This document shows positions 1,039 to 42,229 of a DNA stretch of 64,000 nt, piece after piece; within the stretch, counting starts at the first letter, position 1, and each line of letters begins with the position of its first letter. A program made the position numbers and the translations under genes. The stretch spans positions 64,001 to 128,000 of the forward strand of contig JBKBRF010000003.1 in NCBI GenBank assembly GCA_046292385.1, written 5' to 3'. The notes below the pieces were generated by a model that saw nothing but the letters and a program-made list of their open reading frames with translations, ran no database searches and was not told the DNA's origin. The DNA comes from Armatimonadota bacterium (GTDB lineage: Bacteria; Armatimonadota; SYMT01).

Positions 1039-3087
<2,049 letters not shown>

Positions 3088-4164
3088 TTACCGGGGTTGG
3101 CCGGGCGGCATGCAGGTGGCGCCCTCCAGGAGCACCTCCGGGACCGCTCTGGAGGGCAGCGTCTGGTTGGGGTTCTCGATCTTCTCCAGAAGCATCGACA
3201 CGGCTCCCTCGCCCACCTGCTGCATCATGTTGCTGACCGTATGAATCGGGAGGAAGCAGCGCTCGTCGACGTGGCTGTGGAAGTGGATGAGCGAGAGCTC
3301 CTCCGGAATCCGGAGCCCGAGGAGCAGCGAGGCCCGCACCACGGCCATCGATTCGGTGAGCTCGTACGCCACCACGGCCGTGGGGCGATCGCGGGTGTTC
3401 AGCAGCCGCACGGCGGCCTCCACGCGCTGATCCGCGTGCGTCCCGCCCGGGGAGCGCCAGTCGATGGGGAGGCGATGCACCCAGGGAGCTCTGCCCGCCG
3501 ACCGCATTGCCCGCTCGTAGCCGGCGCGACGGTCCCGCTCGCTGTAGTGGGGGATGCTCCGCTCTTCGGTCTCGACGTAGGCGATGCGCTCGTGGCCCAG
3601 GCGGAGCAAAGCTTCGGCGGCCAGCTCGCCTCCCCGCAGGTCGTCCGGGTAGATGCAGTCGACGTCCTGCTTCGAGTTGAGAAAGATCGCCGGAATGCGG
3701 AGCCGGCGGATGTGCGCGAGAAACGGCGGCGGCCGATCTCCGTGCCGGTTGATGAACACGCCGTCCACCGAGAGCGCGCGCATCGTGTGCGCCAGGTACG
3801 ACTCGCCGCTGTCGTCCACGTTGGCAACCTGCGTCAGCACGAGCTGGAGGTCCTGCGCCGCCATCGCCGTGGTCAGCCCATTGAGCAGCTCCGCAGGGAG
3901 GTAGCGTCCGAGCTGCGACTGGACCAGCGCCACGCTTCCGAAGCGGCCCGCCCGGATCGCCCGCGCGGAGGCGTTGGCGCGGTAGCCAAGCTCCTGGGCG
4001 GCTTGCAGTACCCGCTGCCGGGTTTCCGGCCGGATGCGCTGTTCCGCTGCCCGCCCGTTCAGGACGTGCGTGACGGTCGAGCGCGACAGCCCGGTGTGGG
4101 CGGCGATCGTCGCGATCGTCGGAGGGCCGGTGTGCGATTCGGCGCCCTTCGTGGCTGGTGCCAT
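3088..4164 (-). CDS. LacI-family transcriptional regulator
   Basis: HTH TIATIAAHTGLSRSTVTHVLNG, hinge LGYRANASARAI, sugar-binding domain (LGHERIAY, GLRIPEELS). Confidence 0.92.
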   Translation of the reverse strand: MAPATKGAESHTGPPTIATIAAHTGLSRSTVTHVLNGRAAEQRIRPETRQRVLQAAQELGYRANASARAIRAGRFGSVALVQSQLGRYLPAELLNGLTTAMAAQDLQLVLTQVANVDDSGESYLAHTMRALSVDGVFINRHGDRPPPFLAHIRRLRIPAIFLNSKQDVDCIYPDDLRGGELAAEALLRLGHERIAYVETEERSIPHYSERDRRAGYERAMRSAGRAPWVHRLPIDWRSPGGTHADQRVEAAVRLLNTRDRPTAVVAYELTESMAVVRASLLLGLRIPEELSLIHFHSHVDERCFLPIHTVSNMMQQVGEGAVSMLLEKIENPNQTLPSRAVPEVLLEGATCMPPGQPR

Positions 4165-4346
4165 CGGACTAGCTGGCGAGACGCTGGTTGCTATTTCGTG
4201 ATAGCATCAGGATAACACCTTGCAGGCGCCGCGTCACAGAGCGCTTCAACGCAGTCGGGCCGGCATGTCCCTGCGTATCCGGACGCGCGCAGAACGTCTC
4301 CGGCGGGGAGAGTCTAGTGGTGTGTCCAGGTACTTCTGATCTGTTG

Positions 4347-4431
4347 GAGTGGGAGCAAGGGAGAGTGGGGGAGTGGGAGAGCCGCTCCCGTAAGCAGCTT
4401 CTCAAGCTCGCCCTCTCGCCCACTCCCCCTT
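4347..4431. repeat. Purine-rich octamer-like tract with an inverted pyrimidine-rich counterpart
   Basis: gagtgggagcaagggagagtgggggagtgggagag ... ctcgccctctcgcccactccccct. Confidence 0.5.
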
Positions 4432-4471
4432 GCCAAAGCCACCTATCAATCCCGGTCTGACGGAGTACTAG

Positions 4472-6841
4472 ATGCGGATCTCGAGGAGAGCGACCCTGAT
4501 CGCGGCCGGCGCCGCGACGCTTGCCGACTGGCCCGCCGCGGAAGCCCAGGTCCGACGCGAGCCGGACGAGACGCTGTGGTACCGGCGTCCGGCGCGGCGG
4601 TGGCTGGAAGCGCTGCCGGTGGGGAACGGCCGGATCGCCGCGATGGTGTTCGGCGGGGTGCAGCAGGAGCGGCTGCAGCTGAACGAGGGGACCCTCTGGG
4701 CGGGCGGGCCGCACGACTACACGCACCCGGACGCCGCGGAGGCGCTCCCGGAGATCCGGCGGCTGGTCTTCGCGGGCGAGTGGCGGAAGGCCCAGGAGCT
4801 GGTCGCGGAGCGGTTCATGAGCGTGCCGCTGCGGCAGATGCCGTACCAAACCGTGGGATCCCTGGTCCTGGACCTAGCGGGGCTGCCGGGCGAGGCTGAA
4901 GCGCGGGGCTACCGGCGGCAGCTGGACCTCGACTCGGCGGTCACGTCGTGCGACTTCGAGGCGGGCGGCGTCCGCTACCGGCGGGAGGTCTTCGCCAGCG
5001 CGCCGGACCAGGTGCTCGTGATGCGGCTGACGGCGGACAAGCCCGGCAGCATCTCGTTCAACGCGCGCTATGAAACCCCGCAGCGGTCGGTCCAGAAGCG
5101 CTGCGACGGGAGCCGCCTGATCCTGAGCGGAATCGGCGGCGGCTCGCAGGGGATTGCGGGCGCGGTGCGCTTCCACGCCGTCGCGCAGTTTCTCCCCGAG
5201 GGCGGGACGGTCGACGCGTCCGATCCGGAGACCCTCCGCGTTTCCGGCGCAAATGCCGTGACCGTGCTCATCTCGATCGCCACGAGCTATCGCAGCTATG
5301 AGGACGTGAGCGCGGACGCCGCGGCCCGGGCGGAGGAGGCTCTGAAGGCGGCCTCGCGCAAGCCGTATTCCCGCCTGCGACGCGCCCACGTTGACGACTA
5401 CCGGAAGCTCTACCGCCGCGTCTCCCTGCAGTTCTCTTCGGGGAGCCCGGACGCCGACGCGGAAGCCGCCGGCAAGCCGACCGACGAGCGCGTGGCCGCC
5501 TACCGGAACGGTAAGGACCCGCGTCTCGCCGCGCTCCACTTTCAGTTCGGGCGCTACCTGCTCATCTCGTGCTCCCGGCCGGGCGGGCAGCCGGCCACCC
5601 TGCAGGGGCTCTGGAACGACAGCCTGACCCCGCCCTGGGACAGCAAATACACCATCAACATCAACACCGAGATGAACTACTGGCCCGCCGCGCCGGGCAA
5701 CCTGGCGGAGTGCTACGCGCCGCTCTTCGAGATGGTCCGCGAGCTCTCGGTCTCCGGCCAGCGCACCGCCCGGGAGCACTACGGCGCCCGCGGCTGGGTA
5801 TGCCACCACAATACGGACGGCTGGCGCGGCTGCGCGCCGATCGACGGCCCGTTCTGGGGCATGTGGCAAACGGGCGGGGCCTGGCTGGCGCTGGGCGGCT
5901 GGGACCACTACGAGTTCACGCGGGACCGGGCGGAGCTGGCGCGCAACTACCCCGCGATGAAGGGCGCCGCGGAGTTCTTCCTCGACTCGCTGGTGGAGGA
6001 GCCGAAGCGCGGGTGGCTGGTCACCTGCCCCTCCAACTCTCCGGAGAACGCGCACCACCCGGGAGTCAGTATTTGCGCCGGTCCGACGATGGATATGCAG
6101 ATCCTCCGCGACCTGTTCGGGGCGGTCGCCCGGGCGTCGGAGGTGCTGGGAGTCGATCGGGAGCTGCGCGAGCGGGTGACGGCCGCCCGCGAGCGGCTCG
6201 CGCCGATGCAGATCGGGAAGCAGGGACAGCTCCAGGAGTGGCTGGAGGATTGGGACGCCGCCGCGCCGGAGCGGGAGCACCGGCACGTCTCGCATCTTTA
6301 CGGCCTCCATCCGAGCAGCCAGATCACGCGGCGGGCTACGCCGGAGCTCTTCGCCGCGGCGCGCAAGTCGCTGGAGATGCGGGGCGACGTGGGGACCGGC
6401 TGGAGCCTGGCGTGGAAGATCAACCTCTGGGCCCGGCTGGAGGACGGCGAGCGGGCCCACAAGCTGCATGCCGACCTCCTCACGCCGGAGCGCACGGCGC
6501 CGAACCTGTTCGACCTCCACCCGCCGTTCCAGATCGACGGCAACTTCGGCGCCACCTCTGGGGTCGCCGAAATGCTGCTGCAGAGCCATGCGGGGGAGCT
6601 CCATCTCCTCCCCGCCCTCCCCTCTGCCTGGCCCAGCGGCTCCATCCAGGGGCTCTGCGCCCGCGGCGGGTTCGTGGTCGACCTGGCGTGGCGCGGCGGA
6701 GAGCTGGAGCAGGCGCTGATCCTGTCGCGAGCGGGGGAGCGCTGCGAAGTACGGTTGGGAGAGCAGACCGCGCGGTTCGAGACGAAGCGCGGAAAGCGGT
6801 ATCGACTCGGTCCTGACCTCCTCGTCAAGCCGGCCTCGTGA
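4472..6841 (+). CDS. GH95 alpha-L-fucosidase / alpha-L-galactosidase, probably Tat-exported
   Basis: SRRATL Tat-like signal; EALPVGNGR, LQLNEGTLW, FQFGRYLLIS, WDSKYTININTEMNYW, HRHVSHLYG, PPFQIDGNFG motifs. Confidence 0.93.
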   Translation: MRISRRATLIAAGAATLADWPAAEAQVRREPDETLWYRRPARRWLEALPVGNGRIAAMVFGGVQQERLQLNEGTLWAGGPHDYTHPDAAEALPEIRRLVFAGEWRKAQELVAERFMSVPLRQMPYQTVGSLVLDLAGLPGEAEARGYRRQLDLDSAVTSCDFEAGGVRYRREVFASAPDQVLVMRLTADKPGSISFNARYETPQRSVQKRCDGSRLILSGIGGGSQGIAGAVRFHAVAQFLPEGGTVDASDPETLRVSGANAVTVLISIATSYRSYEDVSADAAARAEEALKAASRKPYSRLRRAHVDDYRKLYRRVSLQFSSGSPDADAEAAGKPTDERVAAYRNGKDPRLAALHFQFGRYLLISCSRPGGQPATLQGLWNDSLTPPWDSKYTININTEMNYWPAAPGNLAECYAPLFEMVRELSVSGQRTAREHYGARGWVCHHNTDGWRGCAPIDGPFWGMWQTGGAWLALGGWDHYEFTRDRAELARNYPAMKGAAEFFLDSLVEEPKRGWLVTCPSNSPENAHHPGVSICAGPTMDMQILRDLFGAVARASEVLGVDRELRERVTAARERLAPMQIGKQGQLQEWLEDWDAAAPEREHRHVSHLYGLHPSSQITRRATPELFAAARKSLEMRGDVGTGWSLAWKINLWARLEDGERAHKLHADLLTPERTAPNLFDLHPPFQIDGNFGATSGVAEMLLQSHAGELHLLPALPSAWPSGSIQGLCARGGFVVDLAWRGGELEQALILSRAGERCEVRLGEQTARFETKRGKRYRLGPDLLVKPAS

Positions 6842-33537: not shown

Positions 33538-34344
33538 CTAGTGCCCCTTCAGCGGGCAGGTGTTCTTGTTCACCGTCACCCCCTGGTCATCCACGTAGGT
33601 GGCGGACCAGCCCGCGTCCCAGCAGCCGCGGTTGTCCAGGTCCCCACCGCTCCACTGTCGCCGCTGGCACGGGAAGACCTGGGCGCAGCGCAGGGTCTTT
33701 ACGTGACCATCGGAATAGAGCATGTTGACCTGGTTCATGTGGCGGCTCTCGAACCCGGAGTGCCAGGGCACCGTGGCGCCGTCCTTGTTCCACGTGAAGT
33801 ACTGCGTGTGCGTTTCTTCCACGTAGTAGTAGTTCGCGTCGAACGCCACGAACATGTCGGCCGGGTTCGCGATGCTAGCGATGTTGATGCCTCGCACGTA
33901 TCCGGCGTTGGCGTTGTAGCCGTAGGACCCGCGCATCCACCGGACCCCGAGGCGCGGGTTGGTAGGCGTGCCAGGGTCCGCATCTTGGGGCAGGTCGTGG
34001 TCGTCCCAGTTGAGCCAGGGTGTGGGGTCGGACGGACAGACCATCACGCCCAGGTTCTTGACGTAGGGCTGGATCCGATAGAAGGCAATGGCCCGCCAGC
34101 CGCTCCCCTTTCCTTCGGTGGTCCACGCGTTCATCGGCGTGGTCTCGTCGTAGTCCTGGATGTACATCATCCAGCCGCTGCCGATCTGCTTCAGGTTACT
34201 CTGGCACGAAGCCTTCCGTGCCGATTCCCGTGCCTGCGCGAACACGGGGAAGAGGATGGCTGCAAGTATCGCGATAATCGCGATGACTACCAGCAGCTCG
34301 ATCAGCGTGAATGCCTTGGACAGGTTCCTAAGACGCATCCGCAT
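33538..34344 (-). CDS. DUF1559-type prepilin-like protein with H-X9-DG motif
   Basis: Class III signal [67 protein letters not shown] favours start 34338. Confidence 0.92.
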
Positions 34345-34475
34345 CCTCCTGTTGTCCTAGAAAGGCCGCAGCACAGTACCTCGCGACCTTTCTGTGTCAA
34401 CTCAGTTCCAGAGGATGGAGCGTTCACCTTCTCGGGAAAGGCAGCCCCGGCAGATTTTTTTCTAAATTTCTGGAA

Positions 34476-35702
34476 CTAGCGGAGGGTACGGGTCGTATAA
34501 GCCCTCTCCAGGTCGTTGTGTGAGCCTCGGGTGGGGACCCGGATCCAGTGATCGGTGAAGGTGATGTGCAGCATGCTGCTGGAGTCCCGCGGCATGTGGC
34601 AGGAGACGCAGGCCTCCTTCGGGTTCACGGGACACGGCTTGCCGGTACTGCCTCGGGGCTTGGACGCGGGGGCGGTGGGGGTGTGGCAGCTCAGGCAGCG
34701 GCTCACGTAGTAGGCCTCGTCCTCGCGGGCATTCGAGTGCGGATCGTGACAGGAGAGGCAGGAGAGGCGGCCTGCGCTCTGTTTGAAGCACTCGCTCCTG
34801 GCGAGCCCGAGCGGCTGGAACCGCGCCATCCCCTCGTGGCCCGGGCCCACGTCCGGAGCAGTGTGGCATTCGCCGCAGAGCTCGTTGATCTGCACCGCGG
34901 AGCGCTTTTCCGGGCGCGCAGGCACCGCGCCCGCCCGGAAAAGCCTTACGTGCTCCTGACGCGGACCGTGGCACCGCTCGCAGCGGATGCCCAACTCGCT
35001 CCGGGCGAGGTCGAGCCGCACCTGGCTGGAGGGGGTGCCCGCCTGCTCCACTCCCGTCGCGCGCAGCACCGTGGTGTGGCAGGAAAAGCAGAGTGCGGTG
35101 TCGGCCGGGCCAAGCGGACGGCCCAGGGGCTGCTCCAGGAGGGTCGGCAGCGGCTTCTCCTGGCCGGAGGTGAAGTCCCAGCGCCCGATCTTGCGGTAGT
35201 AGTTCAGGCGCGCGTCCAGATACTCGTGGTCGCCGGTCTTTCCCAGGTATGCGAAGGCGCGGCGGCCGGAGCCGAACTCAAAATCGAGCGGCTGCCGGGC
35301 CTCTGCGCCCGCCCGCTGCACCGAGATGGCGCAGCGGCTGCCGTCGCGCACCATCTCATAACGGGCCCCGGTGTCGGGATCGACCACCCCTTGCCCATTG
35401 CCGACCGGCGAGCGCGGCTCGGTCGCTTTCAGGGAGCGCAGCGTCAGCGCGTGGGCGCTCTCCGCCTGGCGATCGTAGATCTCCTGATGACATTCACGGC
35501 ACGACTCGCTTCCCGCAAAGCGACCATGGACCGGTTCCCATCCGGTAGCGGCACGTCGCACCGCAGGCGGGGGAGGGCTCCACTCGACGAACCGGTACGC
35601 GGCAGCGAGGAGCGCCAGCAGCAGCACGATAGCGACGGCGGTGAGGTACGAAGCCCGGACCCGGGGAGTGCGACGAACGGCGGCGCTCTGGTGGGTGCTC
35701 AT
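34476..35702 (-). CDS. Membrane-anchored multiheme c-type cytochrome (7 CxxCH)
   Basis: CRECH, CFSCH, CERCH, CGECH, CLSCH x2, CVSCH; C-terminal FTDHWIR; N-terminal TM. Confidence 0.88.
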   Translation of the reverse strand: MSTHQSAAVRRTPRVRASYLTAVAIVLLLALLAAAYRFVEWSPPPPAVRRAATGWEPVHGRFAGSESCRECHQEIYDRQAESAHALTLRSLKATEPRSPVGNGQGVVDPDTGARYEMVRDGSRCAISVQRAGAEARQPLDFEFGSGRRAFAYLGKTGDHEYLDARLNYYRKIGRWDFTSGQEKPLPTLLEQPLGRPLGPADTALCFSCHTTVLRATGVEQAGTPSSQVRLDLARSELGIRCERCHGPRQEHVRLFRAGAVPARPEKRSAVQINELCGECHTAPDVGPGHEGMARFQPLGLARSECFKQSAGRLSCLSCHDPHSNAREDEAYYVSRCLSCHTPTAPASKPRGSTGKPCPVNPKEACVSCHMPRDSSSMLHITFTDHWIRVPTRGSHNDLERAYTTRTLR

Positions 35703-35824: not shown

Positions 35825-36508
35825 TTAGGGCTTCAGCTCTCGCAGCTTAAGGTCGCGATAGGCGGCGGAGGTGCGGAAGGTGGCGATGCCGAGCGGTTTC
35901 GAGAGGCTGATGCTGCCCGGCCGCAGGCTGATCTTCCGGCCCTGGATGTCCTGGTCCACGATCTTCTCGTCGTCCAGCCAGGTCTCCAGCCGGGTCGGCG
36001 TCACCCGCATCCGGACCCGGTACCACCGGTCCTTCACCAGGTCCAGGTAGCGGGTGGTGGCGTTCTGGGACGCGTCGGAGTTGTCGATGCTGGAGATTCC
36101 GCTCACCGGACCGCCCCAGCCGCCGACGATCAGGGTGGCGTGCGAGTCGGCCACGGGGAAGGTGAGGCCGAGCATGAAGTCTTCGCCCTCGATCTTCAGC
36201 ACCTCGAGCGAGATCTCGTAGCTCGTCTTCGGCATCTCTCCTGTCCAGTTGAAGCCGCTCAGCGTCTCCCCGGCGCCGACCACGATCGCCCCCGGGCCGC
36301 CGCGGAACGACTTCTCCACCCGCACCTCGCCGCCGCCGGCGAACTCGGTCCGCTTCCAGCCGGCGAGCGACTTGCCGTCGAACAACGGCTTCCAGGCGGG
36401 CTCTTCCTTCTTCTCCTTCTCCTCCTGCGCCCAGGCGGCGGCCTGGGAGGCGAGCGGGAGACCGGCGAGAGCGACCAGCACGGCGCGGCGGGTGAACGGG
36501 GTCGACAT
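35825..36508 (-). CDS. DUF1080 (3-keto-disaccharide hydrolase-like) protein, Tat-like signal
   Basis: AGGAAG RBS; TRRAVL signal; WKPLFDGKSLAGW; C-terminal AAYRDLKLREL. Confidence 0.85.
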   Translation of the reverse strand: MSTPFTRRAVLVALAGLPLASQAAAWAQEEKEKKEEPAWKPLFDGKSLAGWKRTEFAGGGEVRVEKSFRGGPGAIVVGAGETLSGFNWTGEMPKTSYEISLEVLKIEGEDFMLGLTFPVADSHATLIVGGWGGPVSGISSIDNSDASQNATTRYLDLVKDRWYRVRMRVTPTRLETWLDDEKIVDQDIQGRKISLRPGSISLSKPLGIATFRTSAAYRDLKLRELKP

Positions 36509-36692
36509 GGCACTGACTTCCTTTCGCAGCGCGAGCCGGGCGGGCTCGGCGCCTCGACTCTGCAGTTGTCCACGCCGGAGCCGGAACTCCTGCTCCCGGG
36601 CGTGTTGAAGTTGCTTTGACGATCCCGCCGGGGCGGGGTAGCTTACCAGTGGCCGGCGCGCGGCGTGCGGCGCGGCCGAAGGAGAACCACGG

Positions 36693-36887
36693 ATGGCGCA
36701 TACCCTGACCGACGAAGACATTCTCGTGACCCGTCTCCAGACCCCTCGCGTCCCCGGCGCCCAGCCGTATGCGGCGTTCGACGCGGACGGCACCGACGCG
36801 GACGGCACCGATGCGGACGGCACCGACGCGGACGGCACGGACGGCTCCGGCGATGCGGACACCACCGACAGCAAGGGCGACCAGTAA
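36693..36887 (+). CDS. Putative RiPP-like precursor peptide: 29-aa leader plus 35-aa Asp/Gly/Thr-rich core with (DADGT)4
   Basis: AAGGAG RBS at 36679-36684; 15-nt repeats vary only at synonymous positions of this frame; directly upstream of the JmjC gene. Confidence 0.78.
   Translation: MAHTLTDEDILVTRLQTPRVPGAQPYAAFDADGTDADGTDADGTDADGTDGSGDADTTDSKGDQ
36780..36839 (+). repeat. 15-nt coding tandem repeat x4 (GAY GCG GAC GGC ACS)
   Basis: Read directly; encodes DADGT x4. Confidence 0.9.
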
Positions 36888-36910
36888 CCTTCCCTCGTCC
36901 ACCGTCCCTA

Positions 36911-36957
36911 CAAGCCGCGACAGCCCCGGGAGGCTCTCGCGGCTTGCTGTTTCTTTC
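36911..36957 (+). terminator. Intergenic stem-loop with T-rich tail between the peptide gene and JmjC gene
   Basis: caagccgcga..agcc-loop-ggct..tcgcggcttg followed by ctgtttctttc. Confidence 0.65.
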
Positions 36958-36965
36958 ACGCTGCC

Positions 36966-38171
36966 ATGAGCTATCCGGACGCCTTCACGCTGGAGCGACT
37001 CCTCGCGCCGGTGACCCCCGCCGTCTTCCTGGCGGAGTACTGGGAGCAGCGCCCCCTGGTGCTGCCGCGCGCGGACCGCGGCTACTACCGGGAGCTGCTC
37101 TCCGCGGCCGACGTGGACCGCCTGGTCACCACCTCCGACCTGACCTATCCGGAGTTCCGGCTGGTGCGGGACGGCGCGCCGCTGCCGCTCTCCGAGTACA
37201 CGAAGACCGCGCACGCCTCCGGCGGCGTCACCCGGCGCGTGGCCGATCCGGACCGGATCGTGGAGCAGTACGGGCAGGGCGCCACGGTGATCCTGCAGGG
37301 GCTGCACCGGAGCTGGACGCCGCTCGCCGCTCTCTGCCGCAGCCTGGAGACAGTGCTCTCTCACCCGGCGCAGACCAACATCTACGTCACGCCGCCCGGG
37401 TCGCAGGGCTTCGCGCCGCACTACGACACGCACGACGTCTTCATCCTCCAGATCGACGGCTCCAAGCACTGGCGCCTCTACGACTCGCCGGTGCCGCTCC
37501 CGGACCGCTCCCAGCCCTACAAGGAGGAAGGCTCTCCGGAGGGCCGGCTGCTGCACGAGCTGGACCTCGGCCCCGGCGACCTCCTCTACCTGCCGCGCGG
37601 CTTCATCCACGAGGCGCTCACCTCGCAGGAGCGGTCGATCCACGTCACGCTCGGCATCACCGGCTTCACCTGGCTCGACCTGCTGGCGGGGGCGGCCGCG
37701 GCCTGCCGCGACGACGTCCGCTTCCGCCGTACTCTGCCGCCCGGCTTCGCGCAGAGCGAGGAGCTGCGCGCGGAGATGGCCGCGGAGCTGGTGGTGCTGG
37801 CGGAGGCGCTGCGGAACCCGGAGACGGCCCGGCGAGCGGTGGAGGCGGTGACCGACCGCTTCATCCACACCCGCCGGCCGGTGGGCGGCGACCGGCTCTT
37901 CGTCGCGGAGAGCCTGGCGGAGCTCGACCTCCGGACGCGGGTCTGCCGCCGCCCGGAGGTGCTCTTCCGCCTCTGCTGGGAGGGCGAGCGAGTGCGGCTG
38001 GCGTTCCATGGGAAGCAGGTGGAGCTGCCGGCCTACGCCGCCGCCTCCCTCGCCTTCTGCACCCGTGCCGAGCCGTTCACCGCCGCCGAGCTTCCGCCGG
38101 AGCTGGATGAGCCGGGGCGGCTGGTCCTGCTCCGGCGGCTGCTGCGGGAAGGCTTTCTCCGCCATGCCTAG
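36966..38171 (+). CDS. JmjC/Cupin_4 Fe(II)/2-oxoglutarate oxygenase (ROXA/NO66-like) with C-terminal winged-helix-like domain
   Basis: FLAEYWEQRPL; QTNIYVTPPGSQGFAPHYDTHDVFILQIDGSKHW (HxD and 2OG Lys); LGPGDLLYLPRGFIHEA (third ligand); SIHVTLG; tail LVLLRRLLREGFL. Confidence 0.9.
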   Translation: MSYPDAFTLERLLAPVTPAVFLAEYWEQRPLVLPRADRGYYRELLSAADVDRLVTTSDLTYPEFRLVRDGAPLPLSEYTKTAHASGGVTRRVADPDRIVEQYGQGATVILQGLHRSWTPLAALCRSLETVLSHPAQTNIYVTPPGSQGFAPHYDTHDVFILQIDGSKHWRLYDSPVPLPDRSQPYKEEGSPEGRLLHELDLGPGDLLYLPRGFIHEALTSQERSIHVTLGITGFTWLDLLAGAAAACRDDVRFRRTLPPGFAQSEELRAEMAAELVVLAEALRNPETARRAVEAVTDRFIHTRRPVGGDRLFVAESLAELDLRTRVCRRPEVLFRLCWEGERVRLAFHGKQVELPAYAAASLAFCTRAEPFTAAELPPELDEPGRLVLLRRLLREGFLRHA

Positions 38172-39561
38172 CCGACCGCGAGGCCGGGAGCTCTGCGCCG
38201 CCGGCGCCCGCCGGGTGGGGGAGCCGCTCTACGCCACCGCCTCGCGGGTCGACCTCTGGCTGGTGGTGGAAGTCAGCGGCGCCTGGCCCGTAGAGGTGGG
38301 GGACTCGCTCGATCCGGGGAGCCCCCTGGGCCGCGCGCTGCTGCCGGTGCTGAATGCGGTGCCGCGCTCCCGCGTGCTGTTCGTCAAGGGCGCGGAGCGC
38401 GGGCTGCGTGAGACCCTCGCCTTTTACGCGGCGGTTTCCGACGAAGCCGAGCCCCGCCTCTACCACTGGGAGCTGGAGCGCTATGAGGATTTGGAGGAGA
38501 TCGACCTCTGGGGCGTGCTGGCGGGAGAGGAGCGGTACGACCGCTGCCGCCAGGCAGAGCCGCTCTTCCTGATCTGCACCCACGGCACGCACGACCGCTG
38601 CTGCGCCAAGTTCGGCTTCCCGCTCTACCGCGCCCTCGCGTGGCAGCGGCCGGAGCGGGTGTGGCAATCGTCGCACGTCGGCGGCGACCGGTTCGCCGGC
38701 AACCTGGTCTGCCTCCCCGCCGGCCTCTACTACGGCTTCGTGGAGCCGGACGACGGCGAGGTGATCCTGGAGCTGACGGAGCAGGGGCAGCTCTACCCCT
38801 CCCGCTGGCGCGGGCGCACCTGCTACCCGCCCCCGGTGCAGGCCGCCGAGCATTTCCTGCGGGAAGTGGAGCACGAGACGGCGATCCACGCCTACCGGCT
38901 GCGGTCGCACCGGCGGGGGGGCGAGACGACCGAGGCCCGCTTCCTCGAAACCGGCTCGGGCCGGCAGCACCTGGTGCGGGTGGAGACGACGCTGCGCGAG
39001 GGGCGGCGTTACATGACCTGCGACACGGAAGAGGAGCAGCCGGTCTCCGGCTATCGTCTGCTCGACCACCAGGTGCTCCCCGCGGAGCCGGAGCCGGCCT
39101 CACCCGGAGAGGCGGGCTACCGGCTGGAGCCGGCGGCGATGCGGGATTACGCCTTCATCTACCGCCTGCGCCGGGAGACGCTCCGCCGCTGCCTGGACGA
39201 GCTGGGAATGCCGGGGGAGGAGCGGGGCCCATTCTGCGCTCGCTTCGACGTGACGCGCCACCGCCTCGTCTACGCCGGGGCGCAGGATCCCGCCGGCGCG
39301 ATCAGCGTGCTGGAGCGGGAGCGGGAGCTGCACCTGACCAACCTTCACCTCCTGCCGGCCTACCAGGGGCGCGGGCTCGGCGCGGCGCTGGTGCGAGAGG
39401 TTCAGGCCCAGGCCCGGGCGACCCGGCGGCGCGTCACCACGCAGGTGCTGAAGGTCAACCCCGCGCGTGCCTTCTACGAGCGCCTCGGCTTCCGGGTCGA
39501 GGGCGAAGAGGGGCCGCGCTATCGCATGGCGTGGGAGCCGTCTCGCGCGGTTGGGGTATAG
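38164..39561 (+). CDS. Sucrase/ferredoxin-like (thioredoxin-like [2Fe-2S]) protein fused to a C-terminal GNAT acetyltransferase
   Basis: ATG overlaps the JmjC stop; WLVVEVSGAW, FLICTHGTHDRCCAKFG, WQSSHVGGDRFAGN, YYG, WRGR; GNAT motifs LLPAYQGRGLG and NPARAFYERLGF. Confidence 0.85.
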   Translation: MPSRPRGRELCAAGARRVGEPLYATASRVDLWLVVEVSGAWPVEVGDSLDPGSPLGRALLPVLNAVPRSRVLFVKGAERGLRETLAFYAAVSDEAEPRLYHWELERYEDLEEIDLWGVLAGEERYDRCRQAEPLFLICTHGTHDRCCAKFGFPLYRALAWQRPERVWQSSHVGGDRFAGNLVCLPAGLYYGFVEPDDGEVILELTEQGQLYPSRWRGRTCYPPPVQAAEHFLREVEHETAIHAYRLRSHRRGGETTEARFLETGSGRQHLVRVETTLREGRRYMTCDTEEEQPVSGYRLLDHQVLPAEPEPASPGEAGYRLEPAAMRDYAFIYRLRRETLRRCLDELGMPGEERGPFCARFDVTRHRLVYAGAQDPAGAISVLERERELHLTNLHLLPAYQGRGLGAALVREVQAQARATRRRVTTQVLKVNPARAFYERLGFRVEGEEGPRYRMAWEPSRAVGV

Positions 39562-39605
39562 CTGTGAGTAGCCGCCGCTCCGAGTCGAGTGCTGGAGGTG
39601 GAACG

Positions 39606-40028
39606 ATGTCGGAAGCCGCACGCAGCGATCTTCCCGGTCGCGTTCGCAGCTTTCTCTCCGCCGAGCGGTTCGCGGTGGCGGGAGCGAGCGATGATCCCGC
39701 CAAGTTCGGGCACCGCTGCTACGCGGCGCTGCTGCGGAACGGGTACGCCGTCTACCCGGTCAATCCCCGCGCGACCGAAGTGCTGGGAAACCCCACGTTC
39801 CCGGACCTCGCCTCGCTGCCGGAGCCGGTGCAGTCGCTCTCCATCGTCACCCCGCCGCCGGTGACGGAGCAGGTGGTGGAGCAGGCGATCCGGGCGGGGG
39901 TGCGCTCCGTCTGGATGCAGCCGGGGGCGGAGAGCGCGGCCGCGGTACGGCGCGCCGAGGAAGCCGGCCTGGAGGTGATCTCCGGCGGCCCCTGCCTGCT
40001 CGTTGCGCTGGCCTCCGGCAGGGTGTAA
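39606..40028 (+). CDS. CoA-binding protein (YccU-like)
   Basis: GGAGGT RBS; FAVAGASDDPAKFG...GYAVYPVNP...VWMQPGAES...GPCL. Confidence 0.88.
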   Translation: MSEAARSDLPGRVRSFLSAERFAVAGASDDPAKFGHRCYAALLRNGYAVYPVNPRATEVLGNPTFPDLASLPEPVQSLSIVTPPPVTEQVVEQAIRAGVRSVWMQPGAESAAAVRRAEEAGLEVISGGPCLLVALASGRV

Positions 40029-40069: not shown

Positions 40070-42229
40070 ATGTCACCCGCTCCGACCCCCCGTCTGTTTC
40101 CGGCGCTCGCCGCCGCGGCGCTCCTGCTTCCGCTCGCGGCCTCCGCTCGCACCGACCGGGTCACCGGACGGACGCCGGAGCCGGAGCTGCTGGTGCAGGC
40201 GCTCGACCGCTCGCTCTCCACCGCGGTGCTCAGCGGCGACGGCCGCTGGCTGATCACCGGCAGCGGAGACCGGCGCGTGCAGGTCTGGGACGCGCGCACC
40301 GGCCTGCTGACGCGCAACCTCCCCACCGGCGGCCCGGTGGCGGAGGTCGACCTCTCTCCGGATGCTCGCGTGGTCGCCGCGGGTGGACTGGAGGGAGCGG
40401 TCCGGCTGTGGGACCGCGAAACCGGCGCGGAGCGGGCCGTGCTGAAGACCGACCCGCAGGGCACCCTCTCCGTCCGCTTCTCCCCCGCCGGTCCGCACCT
40501 GGCGACCGCGGACCACCGCGGCGTGAAGCTGTGGCACGCCGGCACCGGCCGCTTCCTCCGGGCGCTGGAGGGCACGGGCGACTTTCTCTCCATCGGCCTC
40601 TATCCGGGCGTCGCCTTCTCCCCGGACGGAAAGCTCCTCGCCGCGCTTACCATGGAGGGCTGGGCGCTCTGGGATCCCGCCATCGGACGCAAGCTGCGCC
40701 AGCTCCCGAAGCAGCTGGACCGCGACACGGCGGTCGCCTTCTCGCGCGACGGCAAGCTGCTCGCGACCGCCCACGTCACCGCCCGGTACACGCTGCCGAC
40801 TGCCGAGATCGCCTTCTGGAGCACCGCCACCGGAAAGCGGGCCCGCGCCGTCACCACCGGGCAGGACGCTCTGATTTCCCTCGCCTTCGCGCCGGACGAC
40901 CGCACCCTGCTGGCCGGCACCCGCTTCTCCCGCGGCCTGCAGGTGTGGGACGTCCCCTCCGGAAAGCGGCTGCGGACCGTCGGAAGCCTCCCCGGAGCGG
41001 TCACCCTCTCCCGCGATGGCCGAACCCTGGCGGCGTGGAGCTCTGGATTCGGCGCTCCGCCGGAAGTCCGCACCTGGCGCGTCTCCGATTTGCGGACGAT
41101 GAAGACAATGCCCCTGGCGGCCCTCCCCACGCCGGCGGAGCCGGTGAGCGTGCTGCAGGCGGCCGGTGCCGGTAGCACGCTCGTGGCGGTGGGCGAGACC
41201 GGCCGCGCCTGGCGCTGGGACGGCGAGCGGGCGCGGCTGGAGCGAGCCGTTTCCCTGCCGGGCGGCGCGTATCAGCGCGTGGTCCTCTCCGCGGACGGCG
41301 CCACCGCGGCCGCTGCGTCGGTCGACTGCCTGACGGTCTGGGATACCGCGACGGGGCGGGTGCGTCGGACCTTCCGCTTCACCGGGGAAGACCTCGGCGA
41401 GTCGGTCGCCGCCCTCACGCCCGACGGCCGCCGCGTCGCCCTCGCCGACCGTGCCTACCCGGGCGACCGGAACCTCCTGTACCTGCGCTGGTGGAGCGTG
41501 GAGACCGGCGAGCAGCAGGGCGAGCTCCGCTGGCCGGAGACGGTGCCGCTGGCGCTCGCCGCCTCCCGGGAGGAGCTGATCCTGACCGTCATCAACGTGG
41601 AGCGCGAGCGCCGCGAGCTGCGAGGGGTCGACCTCCGCACCGGCCAGCTCCGGCGTACCCAACCGCTCGAAGGCTTCCCCGGCAGCGCCCTCGGCGTTTC
41701 ACCGGACGGAGCCACCGCCGCGGTGCCGATGCACGCGATCGTCGGTGACCACTGGGACTTCCCCGTCGACCTCTGGAGCCGGGAGCGCGACCGCCCCACG
41801 GCGCGGCTGCTCGGGTTCCGGCAGGTGCCGGAGAGCGTCACCTTCTCCACCTCCGGAGCGCGCGTTGCCGCTGGCGGCAGCGAGGGGACGGTGCGCGTCT
41901 GGAAGGCCGAAAGTGAGACCCCGCTCACTACCCTTCGCGCGCACCGGCGGGAAGTGGCGGCCCTCGCCTTCGTGGGGGAGAATCGCCTCGCCACCGCGGG
42001 CGGAGACGGCGAGCTCGCGCTCTGGGAGGTGCCCGGCGGGAAGCGGCTGGCGACGCTGCTGGTCTTTCCCTCCGGCGAGTGGCTCGCCTACCGGCCGGAC
42101 CACCGCTACACCGGCTCGCCGGGGATCGAGAAGCGCCTGGCGTGGAGGGTAGGCCGGCGGGTGGTCTCCGGCAGCAAATCTGGCGTGCGCTTCCGGGTGG
42201 AGAGGCTGCTCCCGCCACCGGGCGGTTGA
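40070..42229 (+). CDS. Secreted WD40-repeat protein
   Basis: GGAGG RBS, signal peptide, repeated FSPDG..LA...VxLWD units, C-terminal EWLAYRPD..YTGS. Confidence 0.85.
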   Translation: MSPAPTPRLFPALAAAALLLPLAASARTDRVTGRTPEPELLVQALDRSLSTAVLSGDGRWLITGSGDRRVQVWDARTGLLTRNLPTGGPVAEVDLSPDARVVAAGGLEGAVRLWDRETGAERAVLKTDPQGTLSVRFSPAGPHLATADHRGVKLWHAGTGRFLRALEGTGDFLSIGLYPGVAFSPDGKLLAALTMEGWALWDPAIGRKLRQLPKQLDRDTAVAFSRDGKLLATAHVTARYTLPTAEIAFWSTATGKRARAVTTGQDALISLAFAPDDRTLLAGTRFSRGLQVWDVPSGKRLRTVGSLPGAVTLSRDGRTLAAWSSGFGAPPEVRTWRVSDLRTMKTMPLAALPTPAEPVSVLQAAGAGSTLVAVGETGRAWRWDGERARLERAVSLPGGAYQRVVLSADGATAAAASVDCLTVWDTATGRVRRTFRFTGEDLGESVAALTPDGRRVALADRAYPGDRNLLYLRWWSVETGEQQGELRWPETVPLALAASREELILTVINVERERRELRGVDLRTGQLRRTQPLEGFPGSALGVSPDGATAAVPMHAIVGDHWDFPVDLWSRERDRPTARLLGFRQVPESVTFSTSGARVAAGGSEGTVRVWKAESETPLTTLRAHRREVAALAFVGENRLATAGGDGELALWEVPGGKRLATLLVFPSGEWLAYRPDHRYTGSPGIEKRLAWRVGRRVVSGSKSGVRFRVERLLPPPGG

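Follow-up and report, generated by a model that had tools for sequence, protein, structure and literature searches.

The 64,000-nucleotide stretch of Armatimonadota DNA analysed here (the window; positions 64,001 to 128,000 of contig JBKBRF010000003.1 in assembly GCA_046292385.1) carries, at positions 36693..39561 of its forward strand, a short gene for an Asp-rich peptide, followed by genes for a JmjC-type oxygenase and for a fusion of a sucrase ferredoxin-like (Suc_Fer) iron-sulphur protein with a GNAT domain. With a probability of roughly 60%, this cassette is best explained as a substrate/enzyme system of the RiPP type (a peptide made on the ribosome and then modified post-translationally), in which a short leader, guided by a RiPP recognition element (RRE) on the oxygenase, would present a repetitive core for hydroxylation of its Asp residues. 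Iron/2-oxoglutarate (Fe/2OG) peptide hydroxylases carrying an RRE are a kind of enzyme already known; what appears to be new is the type of substrate and of leader motif, the restriction of the conserved enzymes to the oxygenase alone, the partnership with Suc_Fer and, in related peptides, the position of the leader ahead of export signals.

Judged by sequence comparison, the small open reading frame (ORF) is a real gene. The ORF, its ribosome-binding site (RBS), its 29-residue leader and its 35-residue core with 13 Asp were all found where the first-pass annotation, a reading of the window's letters alone, had placed them. The core consists of (DADGT)x4 followed by DGSGDADTTDSKGDQ, and the combination of the leader motif with an Asp-rich tail has a single occurrence in the genome to which the window belongs (7.04 Mb; 13.9 M six-frame residues). 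When the gene is aligned with its orthologue in G005, a genome of the same family, 34 of the 64 codons match exactly, 18 carry silent differences only and 12 encode another amino acid, and the differences number 7, 5 and 26 at the first, second and third codon positions, a bias towards the third; the two variants of the gene in public runs (36812 and 36854) are each GAT>GAC. Ten homologues of 64-66 amino acids have been called as genes in public metagenomes, and all ten keep the motifs H-T/S-L-T/S-D-E-D-I, P-G-A-Q-P/S-Y-A-A and, at the C-terminus, T/A-T-D-x-K-G-D. Contigs from the RNA libraries of two studies cover the small ORF (X17, 36661-36904, with one mismatch; X19, 36659-36864, with two), and other pieces from RNA runs lie on the enzyme genes, where they are short and less than 90% alike. 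The X17 and X19 contigs start at most 3 nt apart, at a place that a DNA contig of X2 spans from 36600 to 37164; transcription might begin near 36659-36661, but the hint is weak because RNA libraries can contain DNA. Pfam and NCBIfam hold no family for the window's peptide, and for 11 of its relatives a search of the two libraries at E up to 1 gave only weak matches, below the cut-off, to profiles of the twin-arginine translocation (Tat) signal.

By comparison of loci, the peptide gene and the JmjC gene together are a conserved two-gene module and a discrete unit. When each prokaryotic species, represented by a single genome, was scanned with a profile, at least 572 JmjC relatives came up, the best 80 of which were kept and gave 79 loci; with L001 and L002 added, the set comprised 81 loci and 1,143,918 six-frame residues. 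The pattern L[TS]D[ED]DI, named a priori in the first-pass annotation as a leader motif to look for upstream of JmjC homologues, matches seven times in this set, and all seven matches lie just upstream of the JmjC gene, within the same-strand 900-nt zone (binomial P 2.8e-9). A broadened, post hoc form of the motif, L[TSVRNAD]D.[DEQ]I, matches 30 times, with 24 of the matches (in 24 loci) in the upstream zone, which makes up 6.0% of the residues scanned (binomial P 1.9e-24), and a looser motif coupled with at least 10% Asp in the tail is present in 31 of the 81 loci. In L003, L004, L005 and L014 the upstream DNA is shorter than 270 nt and not judgeable, and in L034 the motif misses a comparable repeat protein encoded upstream. 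Besides the window's own lineage, the stricter of these last two forms (24 loci) occurs in Chloroflexota, Actinomycetota, Armatimonadota, Bacteroidota, Pseudomonadota and Acidobacteriota; cases that depend on the looser motif occur in Rokubacteria and relatives of Streptomyces. On a tree of 75 JmjC proteins (left out were L048 and L058, which have masked residues, and L028, L056, L068 and L076, whose matches are shorter than 330 residues), 23 of the 29 peptide-positive rows fall on one side of the midpoint split, and the peptide label changes 11 times, compared with a mean of 23.3 changes when shuffled, none of 500 shuffles being as low. In the G005 locus all three genes recur in unchanged order, and the peptide has 71 amino acids; a tblastn search of the 13 kb of this locus found no homologues of four flanking genes of the window (those for a cytochrome c, a DUF1080-type hydrolase, a CoA-binding protein and a WD40 protein), and a tblastx comparison of the window with this locus was drowned in GC-rich noise. 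The window's own genome has one PF08007 gene and one PF06999 gene, both of them inside the cassette. As the first-pass annotation had remarked for the vicinity of the peptide, no protease or exporter is evident: none was found inside the window's cassette that could serve the leader, and among 103 neighbouring ORFs scanned with Pfam in 23 loci there was no conserved protease, exporter or further enzyme.

The product of the enzyme gene (36966..38171) belongs to JmjC_2 (PF08007, 103.4 bits against a cut-off of 22), and JmjC_2 and Cupin_8 are the only Pfam families reported for it. Its description as an intact JmjC oxygenase, with the HxD...H motif and a Lys for 2OG, holds: the three iron ligands and the 2OG Lys (Table 1) are at least 95% conserved in 75 relatives and align to the motif of NO66. 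A profile search of PDB sequences matched NO66 at 1.1e-54 over the full length of the profile (positions 12-408), with NO66 and MINA53 far ahead of the YcfD/RoxA chains of E. coli, which matched at E 1.3e-12 to 1.7e-12 over only 76 positions (157-232). The AlphaFold2 (AF2) model, with a predicted local distance difference test (pLDDT) score of 87.5, has the three domains of the ribosomal oxygenases, namely JmjC, helical and C-terminal winged helix, and Foldseek matches it to NO66 with a TMq of 0.75-0.78. The best matches in sequence and structure over all three domains are thus NO66 and MINA53 (PDB 4y4r, 4ccn, 4bxf and 2xdv), which, according to the titles of PDB entries, hydroxylate His in ribosomal proteins, whereas the enzyme of the window adjoins a dedicated small substrate-like gene and has a patchy distribution. 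By these comparisons it is an NO66/MINA53-like enzyme and no orthologue of RoxA/YcfD; the name 'ribosomal protein L16 Arg81 hydroxylase', which many homologues carry in databases from one source, is unsupported for this protein because the NO66 match is full-length and the YcfD match partial and weak. NO66, MINA53 and RoxA are C-beta hydroxylases of protein side chains. JmjC relatives occur in 2 of the 41 related genomes searched, which is a poor fit to a housekeeping enzyme.

Modelling supports binding of the leader to the C-terminal domain of this enzyme. Modelled alone (pLDDT 89.2), the domain has an RRE-like fold, three strands and then helices. An alignment of the model with 48,161 PDB representatives by VIA-align placed MINA53 (Z 12.8) and NO66 (Z 9.3) at the top, and ranks 3 to 20 were mostly solved RREs with middling Z scores of 5.6-7.4, including PbtF and MccB (7.4 each), TigE (7.3), ThcOx (7.1), TbiB1 with its leader (7.1), MibB (6.9), PqqD (6.8), McbB (6.7), TfuB1 (6.0) and LynD (5.7). 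This result agrees with a remark in one part of a published account, according to which PF08007 proteins can carry genuine RRE folds, and bacterial homologues occur in RiPP-like contexts and as PF08007-RRE fusions (PMC12710340). The complex of peptide and enzyme was modelled with a score of 0.73 (0.73, 0.71 and 0.73 in separate runs), compared with 0.04 for the best of three controls; 58 of 80 solved complexes reach the calibration mark, as do 2 of 110 mismatched pairs, counts that apply only roughly here because alignments made for this analysis were used. The runs have at least 63% of contacts in common, with a partner pLDDT of at least 45. In the modelled interface, peptide residues 2-7, 9-15 and 17-18 face enzyme residues 349-355, 357-358, 378-388, 391 and 395, that is, the third strand of the RRE-like sheet (349-355) and the last helix (378-395), with the invariant L5 in contact with residues 380, 384, 385, 387 and 388, and I10 in contact with 352-354 and 391. 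The earlier suggestion that LTDEDI serves as the recognition motif is therefore backed both by the complex model and by the RRE-like fold of the domain.

Table 1. Positions in the window of the genes, domains and signals of the cassette
Feature	Position	Strand	Remarks
5' untranslated region with RBS	36659..36692	+	AGGAG at 36680-36684, 8 nt before the ATG; possible transcript 5' end near 36659-36661
Precursor ORF	36693..36887	+	64 aa; leader 29 aa, core 35 aa
Leader (29 aa)	36693..36779	+	conserved motif L5-x-D7-x-D9-I10-x-V/T-T
Core (35 aa, 13 Asp) plus stop codon	36780..36887	+	T-D-A-D-G units repeated; one conserved Lys, residue 60
Hairpin and U-rich run	36911..36946	+	interrupted 14-bp stem; possible attenuator
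Catalytic JmjC domain (residues 1-232)	36966..37661	+	PF08007; Fe ligands H152, D154, H215; 2OG Lys K167
Helical middle domain (residues 236-301)	37671..37868	+	equivalent of the NO66/MINA53 dimerisation domain by AF2 model and Foldseek
C-terminal winged-helix RRE-like domain (residues 326-401) plus stop codon	37941..38171	+	predicted leader docking site
Suc_Fer-like (thioredoxin-like Fe-S) and GNAT fusion	38164..39561	+	Suc_Fer Pfam match 38545-38814; GNAT 39259-39513

Across lineages the peptides have in common the N-terminal motif L-x-D-x-[DEQ]-I-x-[TV]-[TE], in which L5 and D7 are invariant in one alignment of them, and differ in what follows it. In the window, in G005 and in Chloroflexota, Actinomycetota and Armatimonadota, the motif is followed by (DADGT)-like repeats without a hydrophobic segment. 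The form found in Acidobacteriota has a Tat-like RRSFL segment, a hydrophobic stretch, an A-x-A site and then DPDKKPA or GSDPDKKK repeats, and that of Bacteroidota and Alphaproteobacteria has a signal ending in a lipobox-like Cys, followed by repeats that are either rich in Cys, Asp and Tyr or of the type G-[LI]-T-D-S-D-T-G-x-Y-x-D-P-x-G-x-G-R-G; the repeats of L034 are similar to these. The export signals were read from the sequences, with backing from the weak, sub-threshold Tat profile matches. In the signal-bearing lineages the product is, on this reading, more probably a modified repeat protein that is exported or anchored by a lipid, and the general secretion machinery, acting on a Tat-like RRxFL or lipobox-like Cys behind the leader motif, could replace a dedicated protease and exporter. 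Asp is the sole residue common to all types of repeat, and D-x-D units are in excess in 26 peptides taken together (122 observed, 69.1 expected from shuffles), with a small middle residue (Ala in 38, Ser in 33, Pro in 32).

The third gene of the cassette encodes a Suc_Fer-like domain (PF06999, 75.5 bits against a cut-off of 34.9) and a GNAT domain that exceeds the cut-offs of PF13508, PF13673 and PF00583 and has the acyl-CoA motif segment Q-G-R-G-L-G in its translation; a PDB sequence search with the whole protein returned GNATs as the only matches. The overlapping Fe-S/GNAT fusion of the first-pass annotation exists and ends at 39561, but its start had to be corrected: the long ORF opens at 38008 and overlaps the JmjC gene by 164 nt, whereas the ATG at 38164, from which homologues align and which gives an overlap of 8 nt with the end of the JmjC gene, is the probable start. 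The 8-nt overlap suggests translational coupling. A Suc_Fer homologue adjoins the JmjC gene in 11 of the 81 loci, convergently in L021, and the upstream peptide is without a signal in ten of these (L005 has no upstream DNA by which to judge); as far as gene content tells, Suc_Fer is an accessory in lineages with signal-less peptides, outside the universal core. What had been proposed as a single three-part system therefore stands as a conserved peptide-JmjC-Suc_Fer cassette in a minority of loci, among them L021, L026, L032, L059, L061, L068 and L079, which bear out the mention of such actinobacterial trios in the first-pass annotation, but not as a general unit, and the GNAT fusion is specific to one lineage.

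Among the 11 JmjC-linked Suc_Fer proteins, all have the motif C-x-x-G-x-x-D-x-C-C, ten have S/T-H-x-G-G-D-R-F-A (L061 has Cys for that Asp), and all except L068 have a C-terminal extension of about 100 amino acids ending in a T-C motif. The yeast proteins Apd1 and Aim32, which we take to belong to PF06999, presumably have a second His where the JmjC-linked proteins have Asp, and this hints at a different set of cluster ligands. Both yeast relatives are described, in parts of two published accounts, as thioredoxin-like 2Fe-2S proteins (PMC4298746, PMC8482512). A GNAT domain is carried only by L001 and L002 among the 11 partners. In the protein collection there are 17 Suc_Fer-GNAT fusions, with lengths of 441-465 aa and identities of 56-100%, beside over 1,400 relatives without the fusion, about 300 aa long; several of the fusions seem, from matching sizes (16873, 12960, 12020 and 461486), to lie on the same contigs as homologues of the peptide and the JmjC enzyme, and in this comparison the fusion is confined to the window's lineage. 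One Lys near the C-terminus of the peptide is kept in all ten close homologues; among eight peptides of Actinomycetota and Chloroflexota that accompany a GNAT-free Suc_Fer protein, four lack core Lys altogether, and in no case does a Lys stand at the conserved place. Kept with the GNAT and not without it, Lys60 is therefore a candidate acyl acceptor.

The pairing of the genes, the conservation of the leader, the fold and catalytic residues of the enzyme and the docking of the leader are supported by the comparisons and models described above, from which, together with the chemistry of related enzymes, we infer the reaction, the roles of the Suc_Fer and GNAT domains and the function of the product. 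The 64-residue peptide would be produced in excess from its own strong RBS, with transcription possibly attenuated at the hairpin that follows it. Its leader motif (L5, D7, I10 and T13) would dock as a beta-strand on the third strand and last helix of the RRE-like winged helix, so that the tethered, presumably disordered Asp-rich core could be fed to the active site and oxidised repeatedly. That the peptide is a substrate of the JmjC enzyme is quite probable. The most likely reaction would be C3 (beta) hydroxylation of Asp in [T/S/A]-D-[A/S/P]-D-[G/S/T/K] units, to which an even chance may be given. In the window's lineage the translationally coupled Suc_Fer-like protein may serve the oxygenase, either as a reductant that keeps the iron ferrous or in a second oxidative step, and the fused GNAT may acylate the peptide, with Lys60 as the best candidate acceptor. 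The likely product would be a polyhydroxylated acidic peptide. Beta-hydroxy-Asp occurs in siderophores and in epidermal growth factor (EGF) domains, which, with the Asp content of the core, suggests binding of Ca, Fe(III) or a lanthanide; metal binding would be the likeliest use of the product, is the least certain step of the scheme and can be put forward only tentatively, with the odds somewhat against it.

Other readings of the same genes account for parts of these data. A chance reading frame is the least credible of them: spurious ORFs are common in GC-rich DNA, and the antisense frame of this ORF is open too, but the bias of the substitutions to the third position (7/5/26), the ten gene-called homologues with their conserved leader, the motif and position kept across phyla, the RBS and the coverage by RNA-library contigs together make such an accident extremely improbable. 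If the enzyme were a ribosomal-protein hydroxylase of RoxA/YcfD or NO66 type, and the peptide a regulator, a pseudo-substrate or an unrelated neighbour, then the name given to many homologues by one database source would be apt, and the fold and architecture are indeed those of ribosomal oxygenases. This is improbable nonetheless, given a YcfD match of about 1e-12 over 76 positions beside an NO66 match of 1e-54 over the full length, a presence in 2 of 41 related genomes that makes the enzyme no conserved ribosome-maturation factor there, a tight and strand-specific coupling to a leader-bearing peptide across phyla, and a leader that is modelled onto the RRE-like domain. There is likewise little to be said for a free-standing acidic repeat protein, either Ca-binding or part of the envelope, that is left unmodified and stays beside the JmjC gene for some other reason such as co-regulation. 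Many relatives do have Tat-like or lipoprotein-like signals and the appearance of small exported repeat proteins (90-240 aa), and Asp-rich repeats can bind Ca unmodified; the most conserved part of the peptides, however, is the short N-terminal motif, which lies ahead of the signal sequence, would be lost on export and is the part that the model places on the enzyme, and nothing else conserved nearby would explain co-regulation.

A more tangible alternative, though still an unlikely one, keeps the pairing and the binding of the leader and changes the chemistry: the enzyme might modify another residue (Thr, Gly, Ala, Pro or Lys) or use Fe/2OG chemistry of another sort (desaturation, cross-linking or cleavage of the backbone, for instance), which the Suc_Fer protein might complete. 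Asp is nevertheless the only residue present in every type of repeat, the DPDKKPA repeats of L060 having no Thr, Ser or Gly and the core of the window no Pro, and the closest solved relatives of the enzyme are C-beta hydroxylases of protein side chains. In favour of another chemistry, related JmjC or Fe/2OG enzymes that modify peptides act on Trp, Orn and Phe (bioRxiv 10.64898/2026.10.04.756588, PMC12707348, PMC11575548), an Fe/2OG macrocyclase in RiPPs is cited in part of PMC12710340, two-step cascades that start from hydroxy-Asp exist in the case of SmaO and SmaX (PMC12186529), all as far as the consulted portions of these accounts go, and the core is unplaced in the complex model.

Hydroxylation of the Asp residues of an RRE-bound peptide remains the preferred reading, and several observations count against it. 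The residue and the reaction are read from composition and from the chemistry of related enzymes, and the core, at a partner pLDDT of 46-47, has no defined place in the complex model, the score of which may in part reflect likeness to solved RRE-leader complexes of other families. For so small a domain, Z values around 7 are of middling size, and the signal lies in the number of RREs among the top matches. The excess of D-x-D units is not significant in the window's own core (5 against 2.7 expected, p 0.10), and the idea of a metallophore or general chelator is weakened by the DPDKKPA and GSDPDKKKK repeats of some relatives, which are neutral or basic in charge. P62 was the only residue that came up when positions specific to the enzymes of the peptide-linked clade were looked for, and it is no real clade marker. 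The broadened leader motif was defined after the data had been seen, leaving the seven matches to the a-priori version as the unbiased count, and the counts of loci overstate their independence because the loci are kin. Finally, the Suc_Fer and GNAT domains are tied to the peptide by gene order alone.

Several known systems resemble this one in part, and the comparisons that follow draw on portions of the published accounts. MppG of the mpp cluster of Moorena producens is an iron/alpha-ketoglutarate-dependent peptide hydroxylase that carries out a leader- and RRE-dependent double C-beta hydroxylation of Trp (bioRxiv 10.64898/2026.10.04.756588). From its description, it is like the enzyme of the window in its His/Asp/His triad (H141, D143 and H229 in MppG, H152, D154 and H215 here), in a fused RRE with a beta-sheet extended by a strand of the leader, and in the leader-dependent, repeated C-beta hydroxylation of a tethered core. 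It differs in its 77-residue helical leader of the Nif11 type, in its action on two Trp of a lanthionine-cyclised heptapeptide and in its multi-enzyme cluster, whereas here there is a short L-x-D-x-x-I strand motif, a core of Asp repeats and an oxygenase that is the sole universally conserved enzyme. RiPP enzymes known to hydroxylate Asp at the beta carbon include CinX/DurX, YhhC, CanE, SmaO and HExxH enzymes. SmaO performs the Fe/2OG C-beta hydroxylation of Asp in a DGDG core, for which the downstream Gly matters, and SmaX then converts the product to aminomalonate (PMC12186529). The T-D-A-D-G units and the second metalloprotein gene of the window echo this logic of a second iron enzyme acting on hydroxy-Asp. 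In the Sma system, the precursor SmaA has a double-glycine leader, there is a peptidase-containing transporter and an HD-domain partner, and the Pfam family of SmaO is not named in the text consulted; the cassette of the window has neither an HD-domain gene nor a transporter, its partner being the Suc_Fer-like Fe-S protein.

Two further JmjC-type Fe/2OG oxygenases hydroxylate ribosomal precursors, BipG acting on Orn in biphenomycin (PMC12707348) and CzlI on Phe in curacozole (PMC11575548), but as tailoring enzymes within larger clusters. The closest structure to CzlI is reported to be YxbC (1VRB), which is a weaker match to the enzyme of the window (1.5e-22). The peptide relatives in Acidobacteriota, Pseudomonadota and Bacteroidota, in which a Tat-like RRxFL or a lipobox-like Cys follows the leader motif, recall other RiPPs that rely on general export signals, as bufferins reportedly do. 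Lipidated macrocyclic peptides made via the lipoprotein pathway are a further example, according to part of the account of them (PMC13056109). In both of these, the modifying enzymes are different ones, and a signal sequence is absent from the window's peptide. The literature searched yielded JmjC peptide hydroxylases and Asp hydroxylases but nothing that describes an Asp-repeat peptide together with a JmjC enzyme; its coverage stopped short of subscription papers, PDFs and bioRxiv supplements, in which the family could be listed.

If the reading is correct, the few known JmjC-type peptide hydroxylases would gain a large and phylogenetically broad addition (at least 572 JmjC relatives, with the peptide type in about 31 of 81 loci), the common mis-annotation as an L16 Arg81 hydroxylase would be corrected, and the enigmatic 'sucrase ferredoxin' proteins of bacteria would receive a first functional context. 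With only two genes, the pair would also be a minimal system for studying the guidance of an Fe/2OG oxygenase along a repetitive substrate by an RRE-like winged helix; a leader hidden inside an export signal would be exemplified by the Tat and lipoprotein variants; and a product of poly-hydroxy-Asp would be a genetically encoded, tunable polymer for binding metals or minerals. A wider generalisation is rather doubtful: that the peptides form a widespread class with the NO66-like JmjC enzyme as its sole class-defining enzyme, in which D-x-D units become runs of beta-hydroxy-Asp (or a form further oxidised by Suc_Fer) and the products are chelators or mineral-binding peptides, and in which, in several phyla, the n-region of a Tat or lipoprotein signal doubles as the leader, so that general export would take off the leader and also carry the modified repeat protein to the envelope.

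Between the precursor and enzyme genes, the hairpin that the first-pass annotation had drawn after the peptide ORF is present, with a folding energy of -26 kcal/mol (z -2.34; 6 of 200 shuffles fold equally well). It is known from folding alone, because a strict promoter and terminator scan of 36400-39900 made no call, at the hairpin or elsewhere. Hairpins at the equivalent place in L002 and L007 are unremarkable (z -0.80 and 0.06), and none was seen in the short spacers of L021 and L026; a conserved attenuator is not claimed, given these values and the empty spacers.

Some loci of the set show further arrangements. Tandem JmjC paralogues occur in L010 (three, 2211-5963), L015 (two, 3501-5589) and L029 (two, 320-2336), and in the Chloroflexi locus L007 (5719-8187) the trio is followed by genes for an FMO-like flavin monooxygenase and a PhyH-type Fe/2OG oxygenase, which may be further tailoring enzymes. 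Two loci of Streptomyces relatives (L020:3083-3229 and L070:3194-3352) have a variant leader, S-L-[DN]-A-A-x-I, with a non-repetitive core containing Trp, Phe and Asp, and genes for NB-ARC/HTH regulators nearby. Cyanobacterial members of another JmjC_2 clade are preceded by duplicated ORFs of 50-84 aa (L053:2713-2865 and 3042-3194; L072:2610-2810 and 2962-3216); the N-terminal motif of these ORFs, Y-x-x-P-x-L and then G-x-x-x-x-[TS], is a different one and presumably resembles the leader motif of lasso-type RREs. The wider JmjC_2 family may serve several types of precursor. An FGE-sulfatase (formylglycine-generating-enzyme-like) gene adjoins the cassette in two distant loci (L002:3322-4200 and L034:4683-5672) and was taken as a coincidence.

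Downstream of the cassette, a CoA_binding_2 gene (39606..40028, + strand; PF13380, 2.5e-35) starts 44 nt past the Suc_Fer-GNAT stop, beside the acyl-CoA-using GNAT; it is probably outside the cassette because the 13-kb G005 locus has no homologue of it. The flanks on either side (33538..35702 on the - strand and 40070..42229 on the + strand) encode a DUF1559/prepilin-type protein, a multihaem cytochrome c and a large WD40 protein, which are apparently unrelated to the cassette.

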